This document shows positions 3,431 to 45,279 of a stretch of 64,000 nucleotides of DNA, one piece after another (the stretch's first letter is position 1; every line of letters starts with the position of its first letter). Made by a program: the position numbers and the translations under genes. Origin of the DNA: Patescibacteria group bacterium (GTDB taxonomy: Bacteria; Patescibacteriota; Microgenomatia; Levybacterales; UBA12049); contig JBBTTO010000003.1 of the NCBI GenBank assembly GCA_038064195.1, positions 114,428 to 178,427 of the forward strand. The letters run 5' to 3'. The notes beneath the pieces are model-generated. The model was not told the DNA's origin. It made no database searches and saw only the letters and a program-made list of their open reading frames with translations.

Positions 3431-4435
3431 ATGAAAGCCGTGAAAAAGCATCCCGAATATCAGTATCTCGATCTTCTCCAAGAAATTCTTGATGATGGTA
3501 TCAGGAAAGTAGATAGAGGGACTGATGTGGTTCTGTATAGCTTATTCGGAAGACAAACACGGTATGATCTCTCTGCGGGTTTCCCTTTACTTACGACAAA
3601 GAAAGTCTATTGGAAAGGAGTCCTCCACGAGCTCTACTGGTTCATGTCGGGGAATTCTAACATCAAGTATTTGGTGGATAATAATGTCCATATTTGGGAT
3701 GATTATCCATTCAAAATTTATAATTGGAAAAGAGAAAAAGCCAAGCTTCCGGAATTGACGAAAGATGAGTTCATCGAAAAAATTCATGTTAATGATAAGT
3801 TTGCCAAAAAATGGGGAGAGTTACCCAAAATTTACGGTGAATCATGGCGACGCTGGCCGACCCGCATCCCAGGAAGGACGATAGATCAGCTTTCGTGGGC
3901 GATCCAGGAATTGAAAGATGATCCCGATGCCAAAAATCTGATTATTAATTCATGGAATCCGGAATACCTCTATACTATGGCGACGTATGAAGATGCATCA
4001 CGTTTCCCTATATGCCATAACATGTATCAATTTAGTAATCGAAACGGGAAATTATCGCTTCAACTATATCAGAGGAGTGCGGATATGTTCTTAGGTGTAC
4101 CATTTAATATCGCGAGTTATGCATTGCTTACGATTATTTTAGCTAAGATCAGTGGTTTGGAACCCGGTGAATTTGTACATACTTTTGGTGATGTCCATAT
4201 TTATGAGAATCACATTGAACAGGTTAAAGAGCAGTTGAAGCGCAAGCCCAAAACCCTGCCGACAATCAAACTTGATGACTCAGTTGTTTCACTTGATACA
4301 TTTACTCCTGATAAAGTTATCCTTGAGAATTACGATCCTCATCCATCTCTCAAAGGAGAGCTGACCGTTGCCGGCGGCTTCTTTGAAAAAAAGTCCAACA
4401 AAGCTGCATCTTCTCCTAAGAAGAAAAAGAAATAA
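3431..4435 (+). CDS. thyA: thymidylate synthase (long form with Lys-rich C-terminal tail)
   Basis: LHELYWF, PICHNMYQF (catalytic Cys), LQLYQRSADMFLGVPFNIASYALL. Confidence 0.9.
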   Translation: MKAVKKHPEYQYLDLLQEILDDGIRKVDRGTDVVLYSLFGRQTRYDLSAGFPLLTTKKVYWKGVLHELYWFMSGNSNIKYLVDNNVHIWDDYPFKIYNWKREKAKLPELTKDEFIEKIHVNDKFAKKWGELPKIYGESWRRWPTRIPGRTIDQLSWAIQELKDDPDAKNLIINSWNPEYLYTMATYEDASRFPICHNMYQFSNRNGKLSLQLYQRSADMFLGVPFNIASYALLTIILAKISGLEPGEFVHTFGDVHIYENHIEQVKEQLKRKPKTLPTIKLDDSVVSLDTFTPDKVILENYDPHPSLKGELTVAGGFFEKKSNKAASSPKKKKK

Positions 4436-4450
4436 GGTATAATTTCCAGT

Positions 4451-4915
4451 ATGAATAAAGAAGGTGAGGTGGTCCCGACAATTGGCGTAGTTACTTTTCG
4501 GGCTGAACAAGTCCTCCTCGTACGCCACGGAACAAAAGCCGGTCATATTCAAGATACAGTTGGTATTCCTTCAGGGAGAATTGAACTTGATGACAACCGG
4601 CAGCCAAAAGAGAGTCCGAAGGAGGCTTCAGCTAGAGAACTTCGAGAAGAGACTGGTTATGAAGTGGATGAAGTAAATCTTGCGGAGTTTGAAGGAAATC
4701 ACTTCTTGGCAGATATTCCTCGTAGTGATGGAAGTATTGTAAAGATGTCGTGGAATGTTTTTCTAGCATCTCAAATAACTGGAGAGATGAAGGAAGGGGA
4801 TGACGAGACGTCGCCTCTCTGGTATCCAGTGAATGATATCAATGATCTTAACTTGCTACCCAATGTCGCAAGTGTAATTATAAATGCTCAAAAATTTATC
4901 AATAGTCAGCGATGA
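4451..4915 (+). CDS. NUDIX hydrolase
   Basis: Nudix box E..ASARELREETGYEV. Confidence 0.75.
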   Translation: MNKEGEVVPTIGVVTFRAEQVLLVRHGTKAGHIQDTVGIPSGRIELDDNRQPKESPKEASARELREETGYEVDEVNLAEFEGNHFLADIPRSDGSIVKMSWNVFLASQITGEMKEGDDETSPLWYPVNDINDLNLLPNVASVIINAQKFINSQR

Positions 4916-5289
4916 AGATATACATAAGTCATAATCGTAAGCAGTTTAATTATAAAAAAGAATTATACGAACCGCTCAAAAATTCTCAGTTAAGTAAAGA
5001 TCATATTTTTATTTTCCCCCACGACAATAATCCGCAGTCGTTTAATGCCAAGGATTTATTTCAGAACAAAGGTTGTGATTTGGTCATCGCGGAAGTCTCC
5101 TATCCTGCAACAGGTCAGGGAATAGAGCTTGCATGGGCAAATATGTATCAGATACCCATAGTTTGTATTTACAAACAGGGGAGTGATATCTCAGGCTCTT
5201 TGTCATTTATTACCAGCAAGTTTCTTATGTATACCGATACTCAAAATATGATTGAAGATATTGCGGGATTTTTGCGACAATATGAATAA
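4912..5289 (+). CDS. nucleoside 2-deoxyribosyltransferase / dNMP N-glycosidase (DNPH1/Rcl)-like protein
   Basis: Small Rossmann-like protein with GQGIELAWA motif (conserved Glu), located in the nucleotide cluster. Confidence 0.5.
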   Translation: MKIYISHNRKQFNYKKELYEPLKNSQLSKDHIFIFPHDNNPQSFNAKDLFQNKGCDLVIAEVSYPATGQGIELAWANMYQIPIVCIYKQGSDISGSLSFITSKFLMYTDTQNMIEDIAGFLRQYE

Positions 5290-6000: not shown

Positions 6001-7323
6001 ATGAAGAATCTCAAACAATCAGATCCGCAAATTTACGGCTTTATAAAAGAAGAAGAAAAGCGCCAAAAAGGCGTCTTGGAGATGATCGCCTCAGAAAATT
6101 ATGCTTCGAGCAGTATTCGCGAAGCATTGGGTAGCGTTCTTACTAACAAGTACTCAGAAGGATTCCCCGGTAAGCGCTATTATCAGGGCAATTCAGTGAT
6201 CGATAAGATAGAGTCCCTCGCCCAGGAAAGGGCGCAAAAATTATTTGGCGTTCCGTATGTCAATGTTCAGCCTCTTTCAGGTGCTCCTGCCAATTCCGCA
6301 GTCTATTTGGCAGTTCTGCAGAATGGTGAAAAATTAATGGGTCTTTCACTCACTTCGGGCGGCCATATTACCCATGGACACAAATTAGGTCTCTCAGGAA
6401 GGCTTTTTACTTTTGCTCACTACACGCTCGGTCAGGATGGGACGCTTAACTATGATGAGATTGAAAAGCAGGTGCTTTCCGAAAAGCCACAACTTCTCAT
6501 CTGCGGATTTACCGCCTATGCACGTAAAATTGATTTTAAGCGTTTCGGACAGATTGCCGATAAAGCAAATTGCTACCTGATGGCTGATGTCTCACATATT
6601 ACAGGGCTTATCGTTGCAGGAGTGCACCAGTCACCTGTGCCGTATGTGCATATCGTCACGACGACAACCCATAAGACATTGCGTGGACCCAGGGGTGCCA
6701 TGATCATGGTAACTGCCAAAGGCCTTAAGAAAAATCCTGATTTACCTAAAAATATCGAAACAGCGATCATCCCAGGACTTCAAGGCGGGCCGCACGATAA
6801 CCAGACTGCGGGGATTGCCGTCGCGCTTAAAGAAGCCGGAACTGCCAAATTTAAAAAATACGGGGAGCAGATTATCCTCAACGCAAGAGCATTGGCCGAA
6901 GGTTTGAAAAGTTATGGTTTTGATCTGGTCAGTGGTGGAACTGACAATCATCTGATCCTTATTGATTTGCGCAATAAAAAAGTCAATGGGCGAGTGGCTG
7001 CCATTGCTTTGGAAAAGGCTAATATTGTCCTCAATTACAACGGCGTACCGGGGGACCCGATGCCGCCGCTTTATTCAAGTGGAATCAGGCTTGGGACACC
7101 GGCGATCACGACGCGAGGGCTTAAGGAACGCGATATGAAAAAAGTTGCCAAGTGGTATAGCGATGTCATTGAAGAAGTCAAAGGCATGGAGTTGCCTGTT
7201 GATGATAGAGTCAAACGTGGAGAACTGATGAAAAAGTATCGCGCGGAGATTGAGAAGAATAAAAAGCTCGTCTCAATCGGGCGGGAAGTTGCCGCATTCG
7301 CTAACAAACTCCCACTACCCTGA
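6001..7323 (+). CDS. glyA: serine hydroxymethyltransferase
   Basis: Full-length SHMT with conserved PLP-lysine region VTTTTHKTLRGPRG. Confidence 0.95.
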   Translation: MKNLKQSDPQIYGFIKEEEKRQKGVLEMIASENYASSSIREALGSVLTNKYSEGFPGKRYYQGNSVIDKIESLAQERAQKLFGVPYVNVQPLSGAPANSAVYLAVLQNGEKLMGLSLTSGGHITHGHKLGLSGRLFTFAHYTLGQDGTLNYDEIEKQVLSEKPQLLICGFTAYARKIDFKRFGQIADKANCYLMADVSHITGLIVAGVHQSPVPYVHIVTTTTHKTLRGPRGAMIMVTAKGLKKNPDLPKNIETAIIPGLQGGPHDNQTAGIAVALKEAGTAKFKKYGEQIILNARALAEGLKSYGFDLVSGGTDNHLILIDLRNKKVNGRVAAIALEKANIVLNYNGVPGDPMPPLYSSGIRLGTPAITTRGLKERDMKKVAKWYSDVIEEVKGMELPVDDRVKRGELMKKYRAEIEKNKKLVSIGREVAAFANKLPLP

Positions 7324-7774: not shown

Positions 7775-10627
7775 CTACGGCGCAACCTCCTGCCAGATGA
7801 AGTTGGGGACACGCAGGAATTCAGGCGCGTTGAGGATCATATCCGGTCGTTCACGAATCGTGAATGACGGGAAGTTGATATTGTCAGTACACAGGTCACG
7901 TGAGTTGATAAAGTTACCACCACTTCCTCCTGCGTTGACAACTATAGCCCCTTGAACATTGAGTTGTTTGTCAGGGATCGGACTCGGACTTGCCGAGCAG
8001 TCAGCTGTAGCAGGATTGGTACTTGAGCCACTCGGTACACTGAAATTTTGGTCAGCGCTGAAAAAGCCTTCTAAATTACCACTGCCTATGACAGGTCCCG
8101 GACAGGCAGCAGTCCTACCCAGGCTCGGGTCAACTGTTATTGACCCTGAGACCGAGTAAAAGACAGTTGAAGTCGTCGGGACACTTAACGTGCCTTTCAA
8201 GGTCAGATCGCCATTGACGAGTATGATGATATCCCGATTAGCGCTTGCTGTAAAGTTGTTAAGAGTAACTGAGCTATTAGCTTGATAGATACCATTTGAC
8301 AAGCCTCCGGGAAGAGTACAGTTATTGAGGTTGCTACATACTGTCGTGAGATTAGTGGGCGTGATATTGGACTGCTTCATAATTGACTGCAAGTAGCCGT
8401 AGGATGTCTGGATGAGCGTACCGTTACTCGGAACAAATGTCTCAGGATAGGCAGCTCCACCGACCAGCCAGCCATTTGAGGAGACGTTTCCCTGCCAGAA
8501 GTTCGCGGGCGCGGCGCCTGTGAAGGCGACACCGGGTGTTGAAGATGACCCGGGAAGCATGGCATAAGCACCTGTACAGGAGGCATCAGGGCTTGGAGGT
8601 ACAGGATTACTGATTCCTGTGTCAAAGCGGACATCCAGACCATACGCCTGCCACCAGGGAAGTCCTCTTTTTATCGCGAAATTGAGATTTTCCAGATTAT
8701 TGTTATTGCAATTTCCTCCGGGTGAGGGAGTAGCTTCTGCACAGCTTGAGCCGACTGGCGCTATAAATGAGGCGGGCGGTCCGTTACGCGGGTGATTCAT
8801 GATGTAGCCTGTTGGCAGGCTCGGGTAACGGACTGTGTATTGACCTGAGATAAGTCCAGTCAGCGTATAGCTGCCATCTGGGTTATTGGTAATAAGCGGG
8901 TTAGGCGCGCCTCCAGGATAGTTAGACATCAGAATACCGGGACTAGCTGCGAAGTTCGTCTCTGATCCGTTTTTCCTCTGACTGTCATCGCTGTCCACAA
9001 AGACATTACCCGAGATTTGGTATTTGCCGAAGAACTTCAGATCCCGTTGATGCGCGTCACCGGCAGTAATCGTTAGCGGCCGGGGATAGGTGGGGAGAGA
9101 GACATAGTCAGTCCCGGGATCGGCGGTGAGGAGGAAGTCTCCCGGTTCGATAGCTGTGATGAGGAAGTCGCCGTTGGCATCAGATCTGTCAGAGCGGGAT
9201 TGCTGGGTGCCTTGGGGAACCGCGTGGACGACGACGCTTGCAAGCGGCATATCTTTAGCGCTGTTAAAGTCCCCGCTACTCATTGAGCTGCTGCTTTTGT
9301 CAGCGTCAACATAGATTTTCCCAGCGATAGTATAGACGCGGTTGATCCCGATGTCAGCTGTCCAGCCGTTTTGGGTTGAGTTAAGAGGTATCGTGATAGT
9401 ACGGGTATTATCATTGTTAGGATAGGCTTTGTAGTCTACAGGTACTGTCAGCGTGACAGTATAATTTCCGCGCTTTTTATTAGGGAAGGAGTATCGTCCG
9501 GTCGCGTCAGTTGTCGTCGTGCCGCCTTCACCTGCTGGCCCTGTCAGGGTGACTGTTGCTCCCGAGTAGCCTGTGGTTTCAGTAGGATCTTTCGTGCCGT
9601 CTCGATTGTCATCGATGAAGATATAGCCTGAGAGGTCGTAAGTCGGGATAGCCGCGAAGCGGATACGGGTATTAGGGCCGAGGGTTGTCGTACGGGGATT
9701 GGTATTGACGGTACGCCAGGAGTTACTCGAGAAAGTAAGTGCATAGTCACCGCCCGCGCGGTAATCGAAGTCATAGTCTCCGTTGGAGTTGGTCGTATGT
9801 GAGCCGATTGATACTCCGTTACGCGTCGCGGATATTCTTACTCCGGCGACCATCGGTTCACCCGTGTCGCACTGAGCGTCTTCATTTTGACTCCAGCAGA
9901 CAGAGCCGTAGAGATGAGCATAGACATCATAGGTAGTAGAGCCGACATTATTCGCGTCGCTGTGTTCGGCGAGATTGTTGCCATAATCAGCGTAAACCCT
10001 CAGAGTATACGTGTCTGCTTCGTTTTGCGTAAAGGTTTGGTTATTAAAAGTCGTATAGTTACTGCCCCCAGTCCATGACATATAGTCTATAGATGTAATA
10101 GGGAAGTTAGCTCCTGAACTAAATTGCATCGTAGGCGTGCCGTTATTGTAGGCTGTTGAGTCTTTAAATACCGCATGCCCGGCCCAGCAGCAAGTCCATT
10201 CATCCCCAATGTTATTAATTGTTGCTCTGATAGCAATATCTTGACCTGTTATAAAATATCCGGCACTCGGATTTGCTCCGGTCGACGTTCTCGCATCGAC
10301 CTGTGTGACCGTGAAGTCTGGATAGGTAGGTACGGGAGTTGGAGTTGGCAGAGGCCCCCCACCCCCACCAGGGCAAGCAGCGGGTTGACAACAATAACCA
10401 ACAATATCCCCGGGGGTTGCCTGGCACGTAATAGTATAACTTGGTTGATTTGGACAAAATGGCAAACGTGTACACAAGGCGTTGTCCATACATCCTGCTT
10501 GACCATCACATGCAGGCACTATTGCAGCTTGAGTTTGATAGAAACTAAATAAAGAGAAAAGTCCGATAATAGAGCCCACAAAAATAAGCCCGTTAAATAA
10601 GAAAAATCTTGATAAGTAGTGTTTCAT
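7775..10627 (-). CDS. large (950 aa) secreted/surface protein, N-terminal TM/signal anchor, Cys-rich module, Gly/Pro linker, Ser/Thr/Asn-rich beta-repeat domains
   Basis: N-terminal hydrophobic segment, PGGGGGPLPTPTPVP linker, SdrD/Cna-B-like repeats (GDYxxT, DxDxDG motifs). Confidence 0.65.
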   Translation of the reverse strand: MKHYLSRFFLFNGLIFVGSIIGLFSLFSFYQTQAAIVPACDGQAGCMDNALCTRLPFCPNQPSYTITCQATPGDIVGYCCQPAACPGGGGGPLPTPTPVPTYPDFTVTQVDARTSTGANPSAGYFITGQDIAIRATINNIGDEWTCCWAGHAVFKDSTAYNNGTPTMQFSSGANFPITSIDYMSWTGGSNYTTFNNQTFTQNEADTYTLRVYADYGNNLAEHSDANNVGSTTYDVYAHLYGSVCWSQNEDAQCDTGEPMVAGVRISATRNGVSIGSHTTNSNGDYDFDYRAGGDYALTFSSNSWRTVNTNPRTTTLGPNTRIRFAAIPTYDLSGYIFIDDNRDGTKDPTETTGYSGATVTLTGPAGEGGTTTTDATGRYSFPNKKRGNYTVTLTVPVDYKAYPNNDNTRTITIPLNSTQNGWTADIGINRVYTIAGKIYVDADKSSSSMSSGDFNSAKDMPLASVVVHAVPQGTQQSRSDRSDANGDFLITAIEPGDFLLTADPGTDYVSLPTYPRPLTITAGDAHQRDLKFFGKYQISGNVFVDSDDSQRKNGSETNFAASPGILMSNYPGGAPNPLITNNPDGSYTLTGLISGQYTVRYPSLPTGYIMNHPRNGPPASFIAPVGSSCAEATPSPGGNCNNNNLENLNFAIKRGLPWWQAYGLDVRFDTGISNPVPPSPDASCTGAYAMLPGSSSTPGVAFTGAAPANFWQGNVSSNGWLVGGAAYPETFVPSNGTLIQTSYGYLQSIMKQSNITPTNLTTVCSNLNNCTLPGGLSNGIYQANSSVTLNNFTASANRDIIILVNGDLTLKGTLSVPTTSTVFYSVSGSITVDPSLGRTAACPGPVIGSGNLEGFFSADQNFSVPSGSSTNPATADCSASPSPIPDKQLNVQGAIVVNAGGSGGNFINSRDLCTDNINFPSFTIRERPDMILNAPEFLRVPNFIWQEVAP

Positions 10628-11196
10628 TAGTTTGTAAGAGTAATAGTGAAGGGATTATTTTCTGGTTTTTCACCGTATCCCCAAAAAAGAGATTTAAATC
10701 CATCCCTAGGAGGAGGCGAATGATTTACATTTTGCAGGGTTGCTATTATTCCGGCTGGAATCGAAACTCTCAAGCCATTTATATATTTTTTATCTTTTAC
10801 TTCGTCTGGGTCTATATATATTAGGATTTTTACATCATTATTTCCCACTTTCGAGATCAAACTAAAGTTAGTAATAGGTATTGGATTGTCTGCACTTTTA
10901 ATTGTTCGATATGTATTGAGGGGTCTAATTTTGTTAGTTGTCTCAAGTGTGATTTTAGATATTTTAGGTGTTTTAGGGTCTGACTTGATTGCTTCTTTAT
11001 TCCAATCTTTCAATTTTCTCTCAAATTCAGGCGAGCTTTTGTATTGAATAGTATAGTTCTTACTGGTATTTTTGATATTTATAAAATTGTTACTCTTAAC
11101 TACAAAGAAAAGTAAAAAAAGATTGATTATTAGTAAAGATACGAGGATGCTGATTAAAATAATATTATTAACTTTCATTTTAGCAAAAAGATGCAC
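10627..11196 (-). CDS. hypothetical membrane-anchored protein
   Basis: N-terminal TM helix ILISILVSLLIINLFLLFFVV. Confidence 0.5.
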   Translation of the reverse strand: MHLFAKMKVNNIILISILVSLLIINLFLLFFVVKSNNFINIKNTSKNYTIQYKSSPEFERKLKDWNKEAIKSDPKTPKISKITLETTNKIRPLNTYRTIKSADNPIPITNFSLISKVGNNDVKILIYIDPDEVKDKKYINGLRVSIPAGIIATLQNVNHSPPPRDGFKSLFWGYGEKPENNPFTITLTN

Positions 11197-11240
11197 TCTC
11201 CTTAAGTGTATAAATCAGTATTTGTAAAGTCAAGAAAACT

Positions 11241-11736
11241 CTTTACATATTTCTTATAGAGATATACTATATGTAAAGTATCTACTTCGAGTAGGAATAA
11301 TTTGCTCTACTATATTCATCATGAGAAAGAATTTTAAAGAACTATTGCTGCATTACAGCTTAGATTGTATACCGCCCATACGGCGGCGATAGTCTTATGA
11401 AAAAGAGACAGCAGCCTATTATTTCCTCTTCTTCTCCCTCTCTGCTCTCTCTTTTTTCTTTTTTCTCCTCATCTTTATCGGCAGGTATTCCCCGCCTAAT
11501 TCCCGATTTTAGCCTCAGCGAGCATCCCATAGGCTTGACATTAGACCTATAATATGTTAACATTTGAAGCTTAGCACCTTAAAAAGCTAGCTTTCGTAGG
11601 AAGTTATTCGACCAGCAGCCTCTGTTTGATTATGTATATTGTTTCTCAATTGCGAGATGATAATTTATATAGTCTTCAGATTGTCTCCTGTTCGGATCGT
11701 CTTTCTACGAATTACTTGACAATTTTTGCTCTGATC
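11241..11736. repeat. left arm of ~0.5-kb imperfect terminal inverted repeat
   Basis: The core 11371-11736 aligns in inverted orientation with 14504-14871 (e.g. ACCGCCCATACGGCGGCGATAGTCTTATGAAAAAGAGACAGCAGCC vs revcomp ACCGCCGATACGGAGGCGATAGTCTTATGAAAAAGAGACAGCAGCC). The outer part 11241-11278 matches the revcomp of 14967-14998. Confidence 0.85.
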
Positions 11737-11848
11737 TCCGATGTTAGATCGGTGGCTTTGTGCTCATAAAAGTGGGTACAAAGCTACCGGTCAACGTACC
11801 TGCCTTACCGGTAGCATGTCTTTGGACTTTTTGTTCGAATAACGCCCG

Positions 11849-12640
11849 GTGACGGGCAAGGAGACTTCGATGAACCGCCGTAACCTTTTCTCGATCGTTT
11901 TCTCGTTCGTTTTCACGTTGTCGTTGTTTGGTTCGGCACTGGCCGATGACCCCAAGGTGGCGCCCGTAGTGGCGACTCCGGAACAGGTCACCTTGACGAC
12001 GAAGACTCTCGCCGAGTGGGCGACCCTCGTGAGCGATCACGATCCGGCCGCGCTCGACATGATGTCGAAGAAGGCCGTCAAGGCCCTCTTCGGCACCGAC
12101 GACTCCGCGACGCTCGTGCAGTACCTAGCGATCAAGTTCGAGACCCAGATCTATCCCGTCGATGATGGGACGGTCACAGTCCCGAGCGAAGGGCAATTCG
12201 CTGCGACCGTGTCCTTTCGTGGGTTTTACACCGCGATGGGGTACTACACGGTGAAGCTTCGCTTGGTGGATAACGGTGGGGAGTTCCTCACCATCGACTC
12301 GGCGAAGCTCAGCTCTCCGGTGTTTCCGGAGGGCACGAAGCCGACCACGATCAAGCTCACCATCGCGCCGGATGTTCCGGCGGTGCTCTCTACCAATGGA
12401 CTGGATGTGTCGGACTTCGTCGTCCTAAGCATTGTGAGCACCGATGTTCAGACCCACGTCATCACCCTGGTCAAGCCGGGCAAGAGCCCGCTCGACCCAG
12501 CCAACTGGCTTGGCATGGCGATCATTAATCCCGAGAAGAAGGGGAAGATGGGTCTCGCCGGCCTTCCGGCTGGCACGTACGACGTGATCGACAGCACCAT
12601 GGCCGCCGACATCCTCGTTGGCCAGATTACCGTCAAGTAA
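11849..12640 (+). CDS. secreted hypothetical protein (GC-rich cargo gene)
   Basis: Signal peptide MNRRNLFSIVFSFVFTLSLFGSALA; GC content clearly above surroundings. Confidence 0.6.
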   Translation: MTGKETSMNRRNLFSIVFSFVFTLSLFGSALADDPKVAPVVATPEQVTLTTKTLAEWATLVSDHDPAALDMMSKKAVKALFGTDDSATLVQYLAIKFETQIYPVDDGTVTVPSEGQFAATVSFRGFYTAMGYYTVKLRLVDNGGEFLTIDSAKLSSPVFPEGTKPTTIKLTIAPDVPAVLSTNGLDVSDFVVLSIVSTDVQTHVITLVKPGKSPLDPANWLGMAIINPEKKGKMGLAGLPAGTYDVIDSTMAADILVGQITVK

Positions 12641-12751
12641 TTCAATTCACCGCAAAGTGCGGTACAAGAAGGACGAACCCCCACCGAATCCCGGTGGGGG
12701 GCGTTCTCCTCTCCTTAAAAAGTGAAGAGAGAAGAACGCCAACCATAGGTA

Positions 12752-13726
12752 ATGCTAATGCCCATAAGTATGAATAAAGATTCTGGACCAATACATATAA
12801 GCAGTAGTGATCGCATGTCTCGCCGAGCTTTTTTGGTTGCTAGTGCAGGTGTAGCAGCAGGTGGTGCTTCTGTAGCCGTGGATGTAATTAGAGGCATGCG
12901 ACAAAACCCTCCTGCCATTGAAGAAGTCCCTGAACCGACTCCAGAAACAGCTCCTATTAATTTAGCACCTGATGGTGCATATTATTCTTTACTAGTAGAT
13001 GATGAAGCAAATAGTCTCATGGGTGAGACTGGGGTAGCGCTAATTGATAAAGAGATGCAGAACTTTGCTGTTTTTCATCCTAAGACCACTATACGAGTCA
13101 GTAAAGAAGGGGGCGATTTTACTCCTGAACAATTTCTCTATTCAGGAGATGCGTTAGCTAAGCTTGAGGTTGATATCCCATTTGTTGTCCTACGATCTGT
13201 TCTTGAGCGTGTGCTAGCAGAAGCACAAGAGCCAACGACCCTTAATGGTGCAAAGCTGAAAGCACTTGGTGAATTTGCATTATTTCATCAGACTGTAACT
13301 GATAATGACCGAGCTCTGGATATCTTTAATCCTGCAGGGAATGTAGAATTATCGGAAGATGCCGCTGCCTATGTTGAAGCTTATAAGTCATGCCTTTATG
13401 ATCCCTTATCTTATTTTGCAGCAGTTGGAACGACCATTTATCGTAATACACGTCATCTGGGTCCAATAATTAATAATATTCCTGACGAAGCTGTACAAGA
13501 ATTCACTAATTCAGTCGCAGCAGCGCAAGGTACTCCTACAGTAGTTCTTCATGAGTCATCTGATAAAAAAGTATCGAGGAACACTGTTATCTATGAGAGA
13601 GATCTTTTACGAGCCTTGATTACCCCCTATGGTATTAAAGATTCTACTGAAGCCGATGAGTCAATCGAAGAGTCTATGCACGGTTTTCATCAGCTAACTA
13701 AGGAATTAGGAATTGATGAAGTGTAA
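12752..13726 (+). CDS. hypothetical exported protein with twin-arginine-like signal
   Basis: SRRAFLVASAGVAAGGASVA near the N-terminus. Confidence 0.55.
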   Translation: MLMPISMNKDSGPIHISSSDRMSRRAFLVASAGVAAGGASVAVDVIRGMRQNPPAIEEVPEPTPETAPINLAPDGAYYSLLVDDEANSLMGETGVALIDKEMQNFAVFHPKTTIRVSKEGGDFTPEQFLYSGDALAKLEVDIPFVVLRSVLERVLAEAQEPTTLNGAKLKALGEFALFHQTVTDNDRALDIFNPAGNVELSEDAAAYVEAYKSCLYDPLSYFAAVGTTIYRNTRHLGPIINNIPDEAVQEFTNSVAAAQGTPTVVLHESSDKKVSRNTVIYERDLLRALITPYGIKDSTEADESIEESMHGFHQLTKELGIDEV

Positions 13727-13948
13727 AGCGTTTTAAATTGATTTAAACCCCACTCCACATATTTTTTGATCGAGTTCGCAACAATAGAGTATAAGTTGGT
13801 AGACATTACTATTTCTGCAGGCACTAGCGTTGACTTTATTTTAATAAATGGTGAAATTTTTGGCATGAAAAAGCCCCGCACATAGCTATGGCGGGGCTCT
13901 TTCGTCTTGTCCCCATAGGGGATGCGAGTTACTTCGAGCGAGCACGAC

Positions 13949-14395
13949 CTAGTCGGCCGTGGGTGCGTGGGGGTACCGAACCGCCCATTCCGTGACGACG
14001 AAATCGTCTTCGCTGGTTCCCGTCAGGTGGAGCTCATCGTACGAGAGGGCGCCCTCGTGGCTGAACCCCGTGTAGACGATCCGGATATTGAGCTCATCGT
14101 GCAGGTCGAAACCGACGTACGGCAGCGCGACGATCCCGGCGCTGACCGGAGTCTCCGGCAGCCCGACTCGTGCTTCCGGCGCGACCATGTCGATCCAGCT
14201 CGGATTGCCGGATGCTATCTTTTCGAAGAGCTGCTTCATGAACCACTCGACGCTCGCCTGTAGCTCGACCGAAGGGGTCGGATTGGGGCGGGCGGCAGTA
14301 GTAGTGGAGCGAACTCCTCCGATTGCGGCGGCGGTGAGGCCACCGGCTATCGCAGCGAAACGACGACGACTAACTATAACAGTACTACCGTTCAT
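13949..14395 (-). CDS. small exported hypothetical protein (GC-rich cargo gene), Tat-like signal
   Basis: Start taken at MNGSTVIVSRRRFAAIAGGLTAAAIGG (GGAGG 5 nt upstream); the longer listed ORF (to 14584) runs into the right repeat arm and is probably not translated. Confidence 0.5.
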   Translation of the reverse strand: MNGSTVIVSRRRFAAIAGGLTAAAIGGVRSTTTAARPNPTPSVELQASVEWFMKQLFEKIASGNPSWIDMVAPEARVGLPETPVSAGIVALPYVGFDLHDELNIRIVYTGFSHEGALSYDELHLTGTSEDDFVVTEWAVRYPHAPTAD

Positions 14396-14503
14396 GCATG
14401 CCTCCTCGGCTTGTGAGCTTGCGCCCTTGTGCCAATTGCTACGGAAGTCCCGCGCATGATCGACAACTTTATAGCGAGGAAATTCCTCAGCCATGAAGTT
14501 GTC

Positions 14504-14998
14504 GATCAGAAGACAAAAATTTGAAGTAACTCGTAGGAAGACGATCCGAACAGGAGACACCCAGACGTTCATACAATTTGTCACCTCGCAATTGAGAGAC
14601 TTTTTATACGAACAAGCTGAGGCTGCTGGTCGAATAACTTCCTACGAAATATTAACTTGTAAATGAGCGAACCCGTGTATCCTAATCTATTATAGGACAG
14701 CTGTCAAGGTTATGAGACATCACAAGCTCCGGAGTTAGAAAATATGAAAGGGAGCCTGAGGCTAAGCGGATTAGTGAAGAGAAAAAAGAGAGAGCAGTGG
14801 AGAGAGAAAAGTAAAAAAATAGTGGCTGCTGTCTCTTTTTCATAAGACTATCGCCTCCGTATCGGCGGTATGTGATTCAGCCAGTAATGCAGTCTGAGCT
14901 GATTAGAATTAATTCTCATATGATTATAGTTGAGCCAAACGTTCTCAAAAGCTTTTTCTATTTCAAATATAGTATATCTTTATAAGAAATATGTAAAG
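14504..14998. repeat. right arm of ~0.5-kb imperfect terminal inverted repeat
   Basis: See the left arm; contains the polypurine complement (GAAGAGAAAAAAGAGAGAGCAGTGGAGAGAGAAAAG) of the left-arm CT tract. Confidence 0.85.
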
Positions 14999-15377
14999 AT
15001 TTAATTAAAAGGATGAGTAGGCTGAGATATAAATACGCGAAAATTACGTATATCATGTAAGAATTTAGGAAGAAAGATAATTATAGAAAAATAGCAGAGG
15101 GAGGATATAGTCTGTAAAGATGTTGAAGAAGCGATATTGCCCTGACCTTGATTATAAGCAGTAGGTAAATATCCCGATTATGGTTGATGTGAATAAAGAT
15201 AAATGATTGAGGATTGAGGAATAATTGCATTCCCGCATTGTTGTATTGTCTTCATGTATTAGCCTTGCTTTCATGTTGAAAGTTGCAATAATCAGATTAT
15301 GGATGAGAGGCAGGAGCTTGACATCGTCTAGTCTCAGTGCTATAGCAGGCTAGCACTAGATAATTTCAAAACTGTAT

Positions 15378-16844
15378 ATGACAGAGCAAGATACGCAAGT
15401 TAAACTATCCCGTCGCGACCTTTTCAAAGCCGCGGGCACTTTTGCTCTTGGCACTTTTGTACTTGAAAATAAAGGGTTGCAGGTCGCAAGCGCGCAAGAA
15501 CAAGTCCCTACCGTTATTAAAGAGATATTCACCTCAGATCCTAAAGAAGTTAATAGTATGCAGCATGATCAGATCACGCTTATGAGTACTTTTGAAGACG
15601 AGTCTGGGGTATCGGCAATTCTTAATATGACACCAGATGGTGCACAAGGCATTCCTTCGCGCTTACAGCTTGCGAAATACGATGCTTCTACAAGCCAGTT
15701 TGGTCAATTTCAGGAGATAGGGAGGGCTCCGATGAATGACTCCGAGGCAATTGCCCTCTTGCCCGGTGAGACTGAACATACCCTTGGTATCCTGGCAGGA
15801 GTAAATGAAGGACATACTCAATTAGATGCAAATGGAGAGGCTGCTGTCCCGCGTCTATTTTTTTCAGGTGACGAAGGGAGAAGATTTGATGAAATTGATC
15901 TTACTGATCAAAATGGAGAGAAGCTATCCCATGGGATGATTTTAGACGTTAGACGAATTCCACAGTCTCGTATTGGCTTAGTTCAAGTAATTCTGCCTAA
16001 TAGAGAGACAGGGTATGGCATTGTAGATTCTGAGACTAAGCAGTATATACCAATTCCTAGTGAGTCGTCCGTGCCTATACTTGATGATATTACTCTCAGT
16101 AAGGACGGTTTAATCTTAAGTGGCGTAGGGAGAGTGGTAGAGCGTGATAGTGGTGGGTTTCAAAAATTAAAAGCAATTTCAAGGATTGAAATTGACTTAC
16201 AAACGAACACAGTTATAAGTAATTTTGAGATTTATCAGAACGATGAGGCTTTTGCATTTAAGTCAATGGGGGTGAGGCATGATGAGCAGGGGGATCCGAC
16301 AGTAGGCTATGCTGTACAAAAATATACGACAAGTCGCGAAGGAGATAGACATTACTATAAAATAGATCTTCAGACAGGAGAGGTACAAGCAGTTGACTAT
16401 GGCCCTATCTTAGACCAAATCGTCCTAAAATATGTTAGGCCAGAGCAATTTATGCCTAAGGAGCTTTTTGTTGGCTCATTTCCGGTGGTTACCAAAATAA
16501 CACCAGTTGCGGGGGGTAATTTATTTACCGGTAGACTTCAAATACCTCAAGCCGGTTCACACCCAATGGCTGTTTTTATACCTGAAGGAGTAGATCCAGT
16601 TAATGAAATTGATAAAGTTATTAACTGGCCTTTTAACGAGTTGCGTATTTTCCCGGGGGAGATAAAGCAAATTGAGATAGCTTCATTCCCTTCAGATCCT
16701 TTTGCGAGAAATCAGGAATCTCCGGTTCCAAATCATGGATTTCTTTTGAATATGAGTGCCTGTGGACAAGCCTTTATCCCCACAAATGAAAAATATGAGC
16801 CGATCGGCAGTGAAGTTCTGTATGCAATTAAAAGCCAGGGATAG
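15378..16844 (+). CDS. hypothetical exported protein with twin-arginine-like signal (488 aa)
   Basis: LSRRDLFKAAGTFALGTFVL. Confidence 0.6.
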   Translation: MTEQDTQVKLSRRDLFKAAGTFALGTFVLENKGLQVASAQEQVPTVIKEIFTSDPKEVNSMQHDQITLMSTFEDESGVSAILNMTPDGAQGIPSRLQLAKYDASTSQFGQFQEIGRAPMNDSEAIALLPGETEHTLGILAGVNEGHTQLDANGEAAVPRLFFSGDEGRRFDEIDLTDQNGEKLSHGMILDVRRIPQSRIGLVQVILPNRETGYGIVDSETKQYIPIPSESSVPILDDITLSKDGLILSGVGRVVERDSGGFQKLKAISRIEIDLQTNTVISNFEIYQNDEAFAFKSMGVRHDEQGDPTVGYAVQKYTTSREGDRHYYKIDLQTGEVQAVDYGPILDQIVLKYVRPEQFMPKELFVGSFPVVTKITPVAGGNLFTGRLQIPQAGSHPMAVFIPEGVDPVNEIDKVINWPFNELRIFPGEIKQIEIASFPSDPFARNQESPVPNHGFLLNMSACGQAFIPTNEKYEPIGSEVLYAIKSQG

Positions 16845-39626: not shown

Positions 39627-41105
39627 ATGTTGCGTCTCTACAACTCTTTATCTCGACAAATAGAAGAATTTCAGCCGATTCAGCCTCCACATGTCGGTAT
39701 GTATACCTGCGGTCCGACAGTCTATCAATACGCTCATATCGGTAATTTCCGAGCCTATATGACAGCCGATATTCTCGTGCGCGTACTTAAACATAATAAC
39801 TATGACCTGAAATTTGTCATGAACATTACTGACGTCGGGCATCTGGTCAGTGATGCAGATAGTGGAGAGGATAAGCTTGAAAAATCAGCCAAAAAAGAAG
39901 GCAAGACTGCTTGGGATATCGCTGAGCTCTACACAGATGCATTTCTCAAAGACTATGATGCTTTAGGCCTTACTCGACCTGATGTTTTAGCGAAGGCAAC
40001 GGACCACGTTCAGGAGCAAATAGATTTGATTAAAAGACTTGAGGCAAAAGGCTTTACTTATATCATCAGTGACGGAGTCTACTTTGACACCTCAAAATTA
40101 GCAGACTACGGCAAGCTCTCAACCCTTGACCAAATTAAAGAAGGAGCACGGGTAGAGATCAATGAAGAGAAAAGAAATCCACGTGACTTTGCTCTGTGGA
40201 AATTCAGTGAACCAAAAGGTACAGGACCCTTCGACTCTGCTCAGGCCGTTCGAGGCTCTGAGGAGCCCCCAGGCTCTCGAAGAGGTGACGCTGTTTCACG
40301 TCGTCATATGGAATGGGAGAGTCCATGGGGAGTAGGCTTCCCGGGGTGGCATATTGAGTGTAGTGCAATGAGTATGAAATATCTGGGTGAGACTTTCGAC
40401 ATTCATACGGGAGGGGTGGATCATATCTCAATCCATCATACTAATGAGATTGCCCAGTCTGAAGCAGCGACGGGCAAAAAATTTGTCGACTACTGGGTTC
40501 ATACAGCCTTTATGCTGGTACAGGGACAGAAAATGAGTAAAAGCCTGGGGAATACATACAAGCTGTCTGACTTGGTGGGTAACGGCTACCTGCCTGTCCA
40601 CTTGCGTTATCTGTATCTCCAGACCCATTATCGGCAGGAAATGAATTTTACCTGGGAGAGTTTAGAGGCAGCCAAGACAGCACTTGAGCGCCTGACCAAC
40701 AGTGTGGCGATGTGGGATAAGGGAGAGGGAGAAGTCTCAAAAAAATTTGAAGAGAAATTCCTAATGGCGCTCAATGATGATTTGAATACCCCGCGGGCTT
40801 TAGCAGTCGTGTGGGAGCTGATGAAGTCAGATATCAAGCCAGGCCAGAAGCGGGCGACTCTCCTGAAAATGGATGAGGTACTCGGCCTCGGGCTCCAGCG
40901 GGCAGGGAAGAAGCCCGACTTCGTTAAAACTACGACGGGCAAGCAGGAGGCTATCCCAGAGGTCGTACAATCGCTTCTGGATGAGCGTACGAGAGTGCGG
41001 GCTCAACAGGACTTTCAGCGTTCTGATGAGCTCAGAGAGCAGATTCGTGGCCTTGGCTATGACGTCCAGGATAGCCCCAGCGGCCCCAGCCTCAAAAAGC
41101 TCTAA
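39627..41105 (+). CDS. cysS: cysteinyl-tRNA synthetase (with ~25-aa GC-rich insertion before the WHIECSAM motif)
   Basis: [26 protein letters not shown]. Confidence 0.9.
40914..40944. repeat. direct repeat copy 1 (inside cysS)
   Basis: CCCGACTTCGTTAAAACTACGACGGGCAAGC; 29/31 identical to 45059-45089. Confidence 0.8.
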
Positions 41106-41155
41106 GTTAGCCTTGAAATTAGTGAATTTAGCCTCAACTCAAGGCTGGGAGGAGA

Positions 41156-41184
41156 CTTGACAAAGATCCCATAGTAATATATAT
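41156..41184 (+). promoter_or_regulatory. sigma70-like promoter TTGACA-17-TATATT firing into a ~550-nt noncoding stretch
   Basis: Near-consensus -35/-10 with a 17-nt spacer immediately after the cysS terminator region. Confidence 0.45.
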
Positions 41185-41189
41185 TATAG

Positions 41190-41745
41190 GTCTCTTATCG
41201 TAGAGTTTACGATACGCGGAGATTGACAATTGAGCCTTTACTTTTACCAGCCATACATAAGAGATCCTGTCCTCTTATACATGCCTATTTAGGCACGACT
41301 TACAGGGCTGGTTTTTTGTTGGCTACAAAGTAGCCAACACCCCTCTTATGCGCTCTTCGAGTCGTGTACGAATAGTACTGAAAAGACGAGAAGTAAGCTT
41401 TGTGGGGTTGATACCTTTATCTTAGCCACAGCTGGAGTCAGTTCGGTTTGATTATTGAAGCTAAATAGCTTCACTGCTTACGGAACTGAATCTAGCGTTG
41501 GCTAGCAATAGTTAACGTTACTAAGGTGGATAAATTTGTCTCTAGAGCGAAAGTTCTACAAGATGAGCTTTGATATCTTAGGAACCCAAGACATGTGTCC
41601 ACTCTCCGATGTAAATCGGAGGCGTAGCGGTGACTCCGCTGCAGGCTGTCTCGGCGAGTTTAGCCTTAGACGAAAGTTTGAGAACTAGGCTCAAGGAGCA
41701 GCAAGTGGAAATTTGAAGGTATTGCCTTCAAATTTCCACTTTAAT
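41190..41745 (+). ncRNA. candidate long structured noncoding RNA (unclassified)
   Basis: No ORF over 60 aa; many local hairpins; ends in a perfect 15-bp hairpin followed by TTTAATTT. Confidence 0.3.
41705..41739 (+). terminator. intrinsic-terminator-like hairpin GTGGAAATTTGAAGG-TATT-GCCTTCAAATTTCCAC
   Basis: Perfect inverted repeat followed by a T-rich tract. Confidence 0.55.
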
Positions 41746-42064
41746 TTGAGAGATATTGTTCGAGTTAATCGAGAACTTCTCGATGCGGGTTTCACCCTTA
41801 CTCGAAGAATAAAAAGCACTTTCACAAATGAAAGTGCTCTTACGTCCCGATGACATCGGGATTGGCGAAGAGCACCCTTATGAGAAATTCGAAGCACGAA
41901 TTTCGAATAGCGAAACCCCACTTCGTCCCGCTTTGGCGGGACTACGAAGGGGCAAAGCAAAATAGGTTTCGTATTTCGGATTTAGGATTTCGATATTTCC
42001 GTCGGGGTGGTCTTCGTCAAAGACTAGAGTTTGGTCGTGTTGCAGAGAGCAACTACAGACTCTT

Positions 42065-42481
42065 TTGGAGACAAATTCCATGCCATCCAATGCTACTGAG
42101 GCAGTTTTCGACGTAGTTGCGATCATTACCTTTGGAGGCGTGATCTGGATGATTTTCGCCACCATCAATCTCTTTTTCTTTGAGGTTATCAGGTGGTGGA
42201 CCGGTCGCGATCTCGAATGGGGCTTCATCGTCTCTCACAGGGCGGAGGAAGCCATCGAGGTGCGTGGGTTGATGCGTAACATCTTCGTTTACTCATCCGG
42301 AATCGTCGCATTCGTTTTTTTCGTTGTCTATCTCTATGTCGGACCCCGGTTCGGCAGTTGGTGGGCGACAGCGGCGTTTTTCTCGGCGTGGCTACCTTTT
42401 TTGTATTGGTATGCCAGATCCTGGCAGATCGCCAGGATAGTTCGCCGGGAGGCTCTCCAAGCCCTTTACGCTAGGGATTAG
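42065..42481 (+). CDS. small membrane protein (3 predicted TM)
   Basis: GGAGA RBS 8 nt upstream; hydrophobic helices. Confidence 0.5.
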   Translation: METNSMPSNATEAVFDVVAIITFGGVIWMIFATINLFFFEVIRWWTGRDLEWGFIVSHRAEEAIEVRGLMRNIFVYSSGIVAFVFFVVYLYVGPRFGSWWATAAFFSAWLPFLYWYARSWQIARIVRREALQALYARD

Positions 42482-42500
42482 CGTATCATTCTTGGGATGA

Positions 42501-42528
42501 GTCTCCCCGCTGTCAAAAGCGGGGAGAC
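42501..42528 (+). terminator. terminator hairpin GTCTCCCCGC-TGTCAAAA-GCGGGGAGAC + T7
   Basis: Follows the 42065-42481 gene. Confidence 0.6.
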
Positions 42529-42598
42529 AAGTTCTTTTTTTGATGGTGAGTGAAAAGCTCCGATTAGCTCGGGATTTTTCGGTCTTCGTCAGGCCCCC

Positions 42599-42615
42599 AT
42601 CCGCAATGTGTGGAT
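42599..42615. promoter_or_regulatory. operator-like palindrome ATCCGCA-ATG-TGTGGAT directly 5' of AGGAGG-N5-ATG
   Basis: Paralogue of 43479-43495. Confidence 0.45.
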
Positions 42616-42634
42616 GTGAGATCAGGAGGAAAAA

Positions 42635-42760
42635 ATGGATCGAAGACTTGCCCTGATAGGGCTAGTAGCCGCCATGATTGGCGGTTTTGCTGCCGCTCTC
42701 AGGTGGGGATCGGTAGCACTGGACACCCTACTGCTTGGTGGGATCTATTGCTCATCATAG
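42635..42760 (+). CDS. 41-aa hydrophobic peptide (MDRRLALIGLVAAMIGGFAAALRWGS...)
   Basis: Perfect AGGAGG RBS with 5-nt spacing; below the 60-aa ORF-track cut-off. Confidence 0.3.
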   Translation: MDRRLALIGLVAAMIGGFAAALRWGSVALDTLLLGGIYCSS

Positions 42761-43138
42761 CAGTAATTTTTATTGTTATATCAGTTGTCTTTGATTTCAT
42801 AGGTAAATGACTGTCTTGGTTTTACTGCCGGAGTTTGGCCTTACGGCCAAGCTCCGGCAAGGAGTCTTAGGAAAGGTGAAAAAATGCTGACAAAATAGCA
42901 TTGTCAAGCGAAAGCTCTCTCCTTCTGATATCGTAGTTTTTATACTAAGCACTGCATATCTTTGATAAAAAGCAAACTATTAGCTATGAACTATTTACTC
43001 ATAGCTGGTTGTTTGGTCTTCGTCAGAGACTAGCCCTGTGTCGCTGGGGGTGATTTTGCCTTCAGGGTATACCGGCTTACGCACCGGGAGAAAAAAAGTG
43101 GTATTTATTATCCAGAATCTTTTCTCTTGGCGTCGTCC

Positions 43139-43334
43139 CATGTCGGACTCGGGAGCTCCGGTGGAGTCACCTGCTGAGCTCAGAGCGCAGATGCAGCACG
43201 GTTGCTGCATATTCTGTGGCGACTGCAGTGCCCCCACAGCGTGGGGATGCAGTAAGTGCTGGTCCTATGGGGCTGGGTTGAGTGGGTCGTCACAAGATGC
43301 TCCCGCTCCGTTACTGGAGCGAATGAGTGTCTGA
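43139..43334 (+). CDS. small Cys-rich (3x CxxC) zinc-ribbon-like peptide
   Basis: HGCCIFCGDCSAPTAWGCSKCW; the start is uncertain (the listed ORF begins with GTG at 43038). Confidence 0.3.
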
Positions 43335-43354
43335 GACGCCCAAAAATTTTTATG

Positions 43355-43384
43355 CTCGGGGGTTGCCGTAAGGCGACCCCCGAG
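43355..43384 (+). terminator. terminator hairpin CTCGGGGGTTGCCGTAAGGCGACCCCCGAG + T7 run
   Basis: Immediately followed by TTGACTAGAGCAA. Confidence 0.6.
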
Positions 43385-43478
43385 CTTCTCTTTTTTTGAC
43401 TAGAGCAAGAAGAATAATCGATTCTGGACGCACTGCGTTTGCCAGAATGACGATGGTTTTTATTGGTCTAGTCAACCT

Positions 43479-43495
43479 ATCCGCAATGTGCGGAT
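43479..43495. promoter_or_regulatory. operator-like perfect palindrome ATCCGCA-ATG-TGCGGAT 5' of AGGAGG-N5-ATG
   Basis: 7-bp arms, 3-bp spacer, 18 nt before the start of 43514. Confidence 0.5.
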
Positions 43496-43513
43496 GTAGA
43501 TCAGGAGGAAAAA

Positions 43514-43777
43514 ATGAGTAAATCTAGAATGGGTGTCCTCCTCATTTTTGGGGATGGTCACTTGAGCGGTTCTCAGCTTCGTGAGGTCCTCACGGATGGA
43601 CCGATCGTAATCGAGCATCTGAAAGTCTCATCGACTACTGATGAGCGGATCGCGAAGATCCCTGAGGGATTTAGCCTCAGGGCAGTCGCAATTCGTTCTG
43701 ATGTCGGCTCTGGAGCACTGGAGGAAGCTCAACGATTTGCTGAAAATCAAGGAGGAATTTTTTTGATTATCTCCTGA
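43514..43777 (+). CDS. hypothetical 87-aa protein (possible small alpha/beta fold)
   Basis: Strong RBS; alternating beta-alpha pattern; no recognisable motif. Confidence 0.5.
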   Translation: MSKSRMGVLLIFGDGHLSGSQLREVLTDGPIVIEHLKVSSTTDERIAKIPEGFSLRAVAIRSDVGSGALEEAQRFAENQGGIFLIIS

Positions 43778-45270: not shown

Positions 45271-45279
45271 GTGGGTTTT

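Follow-up and report, generated by a model that had tools for sequence, protein, structure and literature searches.

A long inverted repeat in a Patescibacteria genome as a probable pair of structured 5' leaders of secreted-protein genes

The genome of a Patescibacteria group bacterium (assembly GCA_038064195.1, contig JBBTTO010000003.1) contains, at positions 11237-15002 of the 64-kb stretch of DNA analyzed here in full (hereafter, the window), three genes enclosed by the two arms of a long imperfect inverted repeat. Gene A (11870-12640, plus strand) encodes a secreted protein of 256 amino acids (aa) with a predicted NTF2-like N-terminal domain and a predicted cupredoxin-like C-terminal domain, and its GC content at third codon positions (GC3) is 0.805. 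Gene B (12752-13726, plus strand) encodes a protein of 317-324 aa with a twin-arginine translocation (TAT)-like signal, is host-like in composition (GC3 0.249), and was found only in the window and in one related locus, L017. Gene C (13949-14395, minus strand; GC3 0.725) encodes a 148-aa protein, also with a TAT-like signal, which appears to be an NTF2-like paralogue of the N-terminal domain of A. The arms of the repeat, at 11237-11740 on the plus strand (left) and 14505-15002 on the minus strand (right), are the main subject of this work. The closest named relatives of the S2 protein of this organism are from Candidatus Levybacteria. Loci and contigs from other sources are denoted below by L numbers; those of relatives with S2 identities of 66-95% extend at most 10 kb to either side of rpsB, so as to cover the syntenic region upstream of it.

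The proteins encoded between the arms belong to small families. A word-index search of a collection of 5.8 billion proteins recovered one other cluster each for A and B, both on L017, and an exhaustive HMMER search among 1.84 billion representatives expanded the A family to 16 clusters at E <= 1e-3; the exact protein A is present on several public contigs and is annotated at NCBI as a hypothetical protein. Pfam contains no match for the A family and gave none in A, B or C, and no transposase, integrase or recombinase domain was detected in these three. The domain assignment of A comes from AlphaFold, which with a 15-sequence alignment gave a predicted local distance difference test (pLDDT) score of 86.9 (38.8, unusable, with 2 sequences) and a modeled fold that is NTF2-like followed by cupredoxin-like; no conserved copper-ligand set is apparent among the invariant columns of the family. 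Comparison of the A-family alignment with that of the C family by hhalign (probability 90%, E 1.5e-6, 115 columns) indicates, at the sequence level, that A and C are distant paralogues. This homology is visible only with larger alignments, direct comparison of A with C by BLASTP or two-sequence hhalign being not significant, and the A-like and C-like pair of L022 shows the shared motif directly.

The sequence-only reading that drew attention to this segment described an imperfect inverted repeat with a polypyrimidine (CT) tract in each arm, and both descriptions hold. The repeat search and a MAFFT alignment of 11200-11900 (plus strand) with 14340-15040 (minus strand) reveal colinear inverted homology over about 500 nt at 72-80% identity, and blastn aligns the left and right arms over 508 nt at 72% identity (E ~2e-64). 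The individual inverted pairs are 11592-11726/14515-14649 (135 nt, 81%), 11321-11440/14800-14919 (120 nt, 75%) and 11237-11280/14959-15002 (44 nt, 89%), together with pairs in the CT tract (11416-11475 in the left arm) that are colinear with the others. Conservation is patchy, with perfect blocks of 21-32 nt interspersed with strongly diverged stretches; four such blocks are common to both arms, and each occurs exactly twice in the window, compared with an expectation of 0 in shuffled sequence. Past the long hairpin described below the arms are not homologous, and the homology between them stops where the GC-rich sequence starts.

The orientation of the arms differs from what was originally proposed. 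Their outer halves had been taken for the upstream regions of the two outer flanking genes, but this is not primarily so, because the conserved promoter-like blocks and hairpins of both arms are directed inward, towards A on the left and towards C on the right. The left arm is followed by the AAGGAG-N6-ATG of gene A (11870, plus strand), and the right arm, read on the minus strand, by the GAGGAGG-N7-ATG of gene C (14395, minus strand). Each arm is accordingly read here as a conserved 5' leader, the left one, with homologous leaders in L018, L022, L023 and L026, preceding A and the right one preceding C, and in each of them two modules can be distinguished.

The inner part, module 2, begins with a second sigma-70-like promoter site predicted by the promoter scan, P2 (11535-11563, plus strand; TTGACA, 17 nt, TAACAT, with a TG extension), directly upstream of the long hairpin; the TTGACA and the spacing are kept in the right arm (P2 at 14707-14679) and in L018, L022 and L023. 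The hairpin itself, HP1, is an imperfect structure of about 118 nt with conserved internal loops and the apical sequence CUC-AAUUGC-GAG, located at 11593-11712 (plus strand; fold z-score -3.3) and 14529-14648 (minus strand; fold z-score -6.2, covariance-model score 150.9 bits). Its base is formed by UUCGUAGGAAG and CUUYCUACGAA. The two copies fold alike, and their middle stems differ through compensatory changes. In an alignment of 8 distinct copies, double (compensatory) changes are seen in 15 of 34 pairs, and 89.7% of the cells can pair, compared with 37-50% when the 3' partner is slid; the observed values were reached in 0 of 500 shuffles. Changes are absent or almost absent from the internal loops GUUAUUCGACCAGCAGCC and GUCUCCUGUUCGGAUCGUC and from the apical loop, in contrast to the co-varying stems. 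After HP1, each arm carries a second hairpin, HP2, specific for the gene type, and a small hairpin at the Shine-Dalgarno sequence. The A-type HP2 (11743-11795, plus strand), restricted to A-type leaders, is conserved in the window, L017, L018 and L023, and the C-type HP2 (14455-14510, minus strand), restricted to C-type leaders, in the window, L017 and L022. The small hairpin of the A-type leaders, GCCCGGTGACGGGC, which is followed by the Shine-Dalgarno AAGGAG (11844-11863, plus strand), is likewise conserved among them. The counts of G:U cells, which pair in the sense strand only, against A:C cells, which pair in the antisense strand only, are 24:12 for HP1, 20:0 for the A-type HP2 and 13:3 for the C-type HP2, an excess that favors an RNA structure in the sense of the genes.

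A covariance model of HP1, built from four copies, was run on the window and the related loci. All high-scoring sense-strand matches lie upstream of genes of the A and C families, that is, ten of ten distinct hairpins. Beyond the two arms, upstream of A and C, the window contains no match to the model. In the related loci, HP1 precedes the C-like gene C' of L017 (2779-2912, minus strand), and A-like genes in L018 (4917-5051, plus strand), L023 (1863-1995, minus strand), L025 (1761-1896, minus strand) and L032 (673-806, plus strand), as well as in L031 (11439-11560, plus strand), where the gene occupies a different place, between tsf and frr. In L022, which is identical to L030, two hairpins in direct tandem (4788-4921 and 3927-4060, both on the minus strand) precede a gene for a C-like protein of 154 aa and one for an A-like protein of 266 aa. 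Leader modules are present in seven further related genomes, in tandem in one (L022, the same as L030) and singly in five (L018, L023, L025, L031 and L032). The distance from HP1 to the start codon is 123-167 nt in the eight measured instances (window, L017, L018, L022, L023 and L025). L017, a 3-kb Logan contig, retains the order A'-B'-C', with C' on the minus strand and HP1 at both ends, at 58-78% amino-acid identity to the window, from which it follows that the structure is old and retained.

Other searches gave no additional carriers of the leader. In metagenome contigs, a 22-mer of module 1 was found only in the same organism (L021, Hainich groundwater), and scans of viral contigs gave no leader match. 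A scan of genome contigs with the pattern CGACCAGCAGCC N{50,80} CTCCTGTTCGG returned 9 matches, all of them attributable to chance in high-GC genomes; the pattern is too strict, as its blocks vary in L017 and L018. Both the A-type and the C-type gene-proximal untranslated regions (UTRs) have orthologues of their own type in other genomes. Where the A proteins of two genomes have only 18-30% identity, their leader blocks are still 89-97% identical, which suggests an important regulatory role.

Rfam 15, applied to the whole window at the gathering score, yields a tRNA at 56070-56154 as its sole match, and a scan of 11000-15400 at E <= 10 returned only sub-threshold microRNA, small nucleolar RNA, long non-coding RNA, leader and small RNA (sRNA) noise with scores well below gathering; no description of the leader motif was found in the literature. 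The leader is an undescribed, narrowly distributed RNA motif. The conservation of the internal and apical loops of HP1 while its stems co-vary, and its strict association with one gene family, would also be compatible with a ligand- or protein-sensing RNA, that is, a riboswitch-like element or a protein-binding operator that, with or without module 1, switches the A and C genes on a signal. We regard this as improbable: HP1 is a single extended hairpin in which no multi-helix junction or pseudoknot was detected, there is no obvious expression platform (no terminator, and a Shine-Dalgarno sequence 120-160 nt away behind other hairpins), Rfam offers no match, and no candidate ligand can be named from the regulated proteins.

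The outer part of the arms, about 300 nt and referred to as module 1, recurs in L018, L023, L026 and, partially, L022. The conserved unit starts at a sigma-70-like promoter block, P1 (CTTTACATATTTCTTATARAGATATACTATAT; TTTACA, 17 nt, TACTAT; 11241-11272, plus strand, and 14998-14967 in the right arm), the activity of which is predicted from the promoter scan. The block is nearly invariant across genomes, being kept in 6 leaders, and its pattern matches leaders only among 30 loci. It is followed by a short CCGCC/GGCGG hairpin (11372-11386, plus strand), apparent in the sequence and the leader alignment, which reads CCGCC/GGAGG in other copies and overlaps a possible Shine-Dalgarno sequence. In the module-1 hairpin (11399-11458, plus strand), the purine run GAAAAAGAGACAGCAG (11399-11414) pairs with the pyrimidine run CTGCTCTCTCTTTTTTC (11442-11458), both blocks being perfectly common to the two arms; the loop and the 3' tail of this hairpin fall within the polypyrimidine tract, which in the right arm lies at ~14797-14764. 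The longest shared block, the 32-mer GGCGATAGTCTTATGAAAAAGAGACAGCAGCC, is likewise perfectly common to both arms and contributes the purine run that pairs with CTGCTCTCTCTTTTTTC. In the leader alignment, the stem shows a compensatory change from GCAG/CTGC to GTGG/CCAC in L026 and is rewritten as AAGAAAAG/CTTTTCTT in L022.

Module 1 and module 2 can be separated. In L018, they stand back to back: module 1 lies upstream of D, a GC-rich gene for a secreted protein of 138 aa, and HP1, with a TTGACA-17-TATAGT promoter of its own, lies upstream of an A-like gene. In the second unit of L022, HP1 occurs without module 1. From these two cases, the arm consists of two joined modules, which are parts of transcription units. 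In the L018 region concerned (3720-4745, in a genome with an S2 protein 95% identical), module 1 alone precedes D, the product of which contains Cys and the GC3 of which is 0.73, and about 300 nt of a different, structured-looking UTR lie between them.

The same separability, in L018 with different genes and in the second unit of L022 without module 1, can be taken to mean that module 1 is an independent gene, either an sRNA driven by P1 and ending at the U-rich CT tract or a protein or upstream open reading frame (ORF) of about 50 aa, in which case only P2 and HP1 would be part of the A and C mRNAs. A small ORF of 51 aa (MKKRQQP...; 11397-11552, plus strand) starts at an ATG that is invariant in the leader alignment (14843 in the right arm) and that in 4 of 5 copies is preceded, at a distance of 10 nt, by GGAGG; ORFs of 51-55 aa start from this ATG in both window arms, L022 and L023. 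The purine/pyrimidine hairpin followed by U-rich sequence is, moreover, terminator-like. The ORF is nevertheless probably not coding: conservation covers the ATG and about 7 codons at the start, with none in the peptide past residue 7, the shared CT block lies in different frames in the two window arms, and the CT-rich composition alone leaves several frames open. A type I toxin-antitoxin system or a small membrane peptide, considered in this connection, would call for a small hydrophobic ORF that stays in frame among homologues. The stem is rich in A-U and G-A, unlike typical intrinsic terminators, and the scan found none there. In all cases, the gene that follows module 1 directly is GC-rich, has the same orientation and encodes a secreted protein. 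Taken together, these observations make an independent gene in module 1 unlikely.

The interpretation we favor is that the arms are paralogous copies of one long structured 5' leader, about 500 nt in length or about 600 nt with the gene-specific part, of a lineage-specific family of secreted proteins in Levybacteria-like Patescibacteria, and we consider it probable. The covariation-supported structure and the consistent sense position before one gene family are both present and, on sequence grounds, mark the element as a structured cis-acting 5' leader. Given the paralogy of A and C, the inverted repeat would be part of a duplicated leader-plus-gene unit. The alternative offered by the sequence-only reading, a promoter region duplicated in inverted orientation around imported DNA, was thus essentially right as to the duplication; the leader belongs, however, to the inner paralogues A and C, and the GC-rich DNA was not recently imported (see below).

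The present arrangement probably goes back to a leader-plus-gene unit that was duplicated and inverted locally. The tandem order of L022 and L030 is P1, partial module 1, HP1, C, HP1, A, and only the first unit has module 1; in the lineage of the window and L017, A has its own module 1 and HP1 and faces C, with B between them. The identity of the two HP1 copies is 78% in the window arms and 62% in the tandem hairpins of L022. This difference, together with the mosaic right arm of L017 described in the next paragraph, suggests that, in addition to strong purifying selection, the leader was duplicated at a later stage or the arms exchanged sequence. Purifying selection acting on the leader would then keep the arms similar, and some inter-arm exchange may contribute. 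As to function, we propose that the leader is a cis-acting RNA element of the sense transcript. Transcription would be driven by P1 and perhaps also by P2, as suggested by their consensus matches, and HP1 and HP2 would most likely control processing, stability and/or translation of the mRNAs for the secreted proteins. The long double-stranded stem could, by analogy, be an RNase III-type processing site or a 5' protective structure, as suggested by its ~45-bp interrupted length and by the position of HP1 between two co-oriented genes in L022; the hairpins next to the Shine-Dalgarno sequence may tune initiation.

Several points weigh against this interpretation. The outer part of the right arm of L017 is closer to the left arm of the window than to the right one, so that recombination or gene conversion between the arms contributes to their similarity, and the stretch corresponding to P2 is deleted in the same right arm. 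In 2 of 4 single hairpins, the folding energy of the antisense strand equals or surpasses that of the sense strand; since these energies are undecided, the strand was assigned from the G:U counts and the association with genes. The covariation statistics draw on 8-10 related sequences, as only a handful of genomes carry the motif, and fitting the alignments with the covariance model and with RNAalifold biases them in favor of the proposed structure. Given the plausible GGAGG before it, the invariant ATG of module 1 could be the start of a small or upstream ORF. Finally, the promoters, the transcript ends and the role at the RNA level are all inferred.

The composition of the genes between the arms had been ascribed to GC-rich imported cargo. 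The unusual composition itself stands for A and C, though not for B, whose low GC3 was given above. In the window, A and C have 60-62% GC and GC3 values of 0.81 and 0.73, while most other ORFs of at least 150 aa have GC3 values of 0.25-0.57, and two unrelated ORFs reach 0.69-0.70. Recent import is not borne out, because the family is GC3-rich in every relative examined: across genomes, leader-linked genes have GC3 values of 0.46-0.81 vs 0.2-0.45 for their neighbors. The values are 0.73 and 0.76 in L017 (gene B', 0.21), 0.68 and 0.73 in L018 (comparison genes, 0.32-0.41), 0.53 and 0.65 in L022 (0.25-0.42), 0.77 in L023 (0.31-0.44), 0.66 in L025 (0.27-0.39), 0.46 in L031 (0.21-0.30), and 0.59 and 0.54 in L032 (0.31-0.33). 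As GC contents at the first and second codon positions are ordinary, the excess is synonymous. Between A and its L017 orthologue A', synonymous divergence (dS) is ~1.1, yet both have GC3 values of 0.74-0.81 at sites with identical amino acids; the excess has therefore been maintained, by selection or by a persistent bias, and is not a trace of recent import. No description of this anomaly was found in the literature, and it represents a clean case of a gene-specific codon composition kept over long divergence in AT-rich genomes.

A more speculative thought, to which we attach little credence, is that the leader combines with the GC3-rich genes into one unit dedicated to expression, with a mechanistic link between the two odd features. 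In one version, the leader, with its promoter, processing and stability functions, could double as a homology arm through which A, C and D are exchanged, captured or reshuffled among Levybacteria-like lineages without a recombinase of a known type; in another, the persistent GC3 excess may reflect a requirement of these mRNAs at the RNA level. The hints behind this idea are the presence of module 1 before gene D in L018, the chimeric right arm of L017, and the high GC3 in every genome despite a dS of ~1.

The proposal that the segment is a non-autonomous mobile element (MITE-like, that is, resembling a miniature inverted-repeat transposable element, or composite) or a cassette-capture platform, with the arms as terminal inverted repeats (TIRs) and the GC-rich genes as imported cargo, draws on the long inverted repeats around compositionally aberrant genes, on the end of the arm homology where the GC-rich sequence begins, and on the occurrence of module 1 upstream of the unrelated GC-rich gene D in L018, which implies that the leader can be combined with different genes. 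We now consider this proposal extremely improbable. No target-site duplication was found at 11237/15002, where the left flank reads ...GAAAACT|CTTTACAT and the right flank ATGTAAAG|ATTTAAT..., with no direct repeat. The check for further copies of the arms gave only the two in the window, none in viral contigs, and, in relatives, modules only before genes of the A and C families or D. The absence of transposase, integrase and recombinase genes from the segment, already noted from the sequence, extends beyond A, B and C to the genes called within +-10 kb on identical public contigs. The conserved unit begins with a promoter block and has no terminal recombination site, and the GC3 excess is old and family-wide. 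The arms are oriented as leaders, and their modules are tandem (L022/L030) or single in relatives, always in sense before the same family, so the inverted pair is not an insertion unit. An empty site was also sought: the flanking genes of L018 (177 aa and 481 aa) have no detectable homology to the 189-aa and 488-aa genes of the window, and because the whole island evolves fast no clean empty site can be defined. One Logan contig, L004 (3056 nt), equals the interior at 11593-14648 of the window; its ends coincide with the 31-mer shared by the arms, at which short-read unitigs break, and it was seen in 9 samples. This is the assembly consequence expected for any inverted repeat and no evidence for excision.

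Cassette capture of the integron type was considered in particular. The hairpin lies 5' of the genes, not 3', with promoter-like sites before it and the start codons 123-167 nt after it, and the attC cores R'' (RYYYAAC) and R' (GTTRRRY) do not flank its base; no integrase Pfam family, IntI included, was found within +-10 kb. Among further candidates, attC was thus rejected for lack of core sites, a retron for lack of a reverse transcriptase, a diversity-generating retroelement (DGR) for lack of both a reverse transcriptase and a template/variable repeat pair, and a leader of clustered regularly interspaced short palindromic repeats (CRISPR) for lack of repeats.

Inverted repeats that span 500 bp, are 72-80% identical and include perfect blocks of 31-32 nt can recombine. 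The arms might therefore invert the 2.8-kb segment between them, serving as a recombinational switch or in shufflon-like phase variation, or HP1 might be a DNA cruciform or recombination site. The right arm of L017, chimeric relative to the window arms, the rearrangement of the locus between close relatives (for example, L018 vs the window) and the ability of the hairpin to fold on either strand would fit such a role. Inversion would, however, merely swap homologous leader copies before A and C and thus provide no on/off logic, and the orientation is the same in three independent ENA assemblies, in L021 and in the window. No recombinase gene is located nearby, the G:U and A:C counts favor a sense-strand RNA structure, and the single and tandem copies of relatives are unable to serve as inversion sites. 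An inversion switch is accordingly very unlikely.

Among known systems, the leader most resembles structured 5' UTRs. Stabilizer hairpins at the 5' end, such as those of the E. coli ompA leader and the B. subtilis aprE leader, and leader stems processed by RNase III act in cis on the processing, translation or stability of their mRNAs. The leader described here shares with them its position between promoter and start codon in the sense orientation, long stable covarying hairpins and a tie to particular genes, and HP1 of L022, located between two co-oriented genes, resembles an intercistronic processing site. It differs in being much longer (~600 nt) and modular, with blocks more conserved than its proteins, and in having no homology to described leaders in Rfam, the mechanism being proposed by analogy. 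With orphan RNA motifs of the kind deposited in Rfam or described by the Breaker laboratory it has in common the covariation, the consistent genetic context and the narrow taxonomic range; it is distinct from them in lacking an Rfam 15 match and in its tie to NTF2/cupredoxin-like secreted proteins of Levybacteria-like Patescibacteria.

The resemblance to mobile and recombining elements is more superficial. MITEs and other non-autonomous TIR transposons also have two inverted homologous arms around a segment without a transposase, but their TIRs are typically 10-40 nt, compared with 500 nt here, and the arms in the window are leaders of transcription units, single or tandem in relatives, with no target-site duplication, dispersed copies or autonomous partner. 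Integron attC sites in cassettes are imperfect hairpins of ~60-140 nt with conserved unpaired bases beside compositionally odd genes; in the window, the hairpin is 5' of the gene, no IntI or attC core is present, and the copies are inverted and do not form an array in one orientation, the genes having promoters of their own. Invertons and shufflons likewise involve inverted repeats around a DNA segment at a locus for surface or secreted proteins. The repeats in the window are long, diverged leaders, their inversion would leave the expression logic unchanged, no recombinase is present, and a single orientation occurs in all assemblies seen.

The mobile or cassette-capture candidate can thus be removed as a false lead. 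What remains is an RNA candidate: a modular leader of about 600 nt with good covariation support. The genes that it precedes, for secreted NTF2/cupredoxin-like proteins, lie beside that of a large surface protein of SdrD type, and their hosts are ultra-small Patescibacteria of groundwater, organisms of which the gene regulation and surface biology are almost unexplored. The narrow distribution of the leader makes its general impact modest.

The surface-protein genes of the neighborhood form a conserved pair. In the window (7775-11196), a large surface protein with SdrD/CarboxypepD_reg repeats (950 aa, ~50% GC) is accompanied by a small N-terminally anchored protein of ~170-200 aa, and the same pair occurs in L018 (1-1912), L022 (1-2816), L023 (1-879), L025 (1-632) and L031 (2120-5448), where it mostly adjoins the leader-bearing genes. 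The small anchored protein is beyond BLAST recognition even at 95% S2 identity. L018 additionally encodes a pair of a Gp49/HigB-like toxin and a helix-turn-helix antitoxin (6184-6861).

Elsewhere in the window, the region 41105-45300 starts with ~2.7 kb (41.1-43.8 kb) that contain no ORF longer than ~140 aa and continues with the overlapping GC-richer ORFs 43796-44485 (GC3 0.69) and 44368-44976, which have no Pfam match and no Rfam hit; decay or a foreign origin of this DNA is possible. The gene at 60103-61662 (minus strand), for a type IB topoisomerase of bacterial type, adjoins an ORF of 208 aa (61982-62608, minus strand; GC3 0.70) that has no Pfam match; neither is associated with leader motifs. 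In the rpsB-tsf-frr neighborhood of related Patescibacteria, selfish-looking small inserts were encountered (a Y1_Tnp fragment, PDDEXK_3, GIY-YIG and 23S_rRNA_IVP), none of them associated with the leader. These inserts are located in L020 at 331-534, 1734-2114 and 2689-2967, in L028/L029 near 6853-7263, and in the region after frr in the window and L001.

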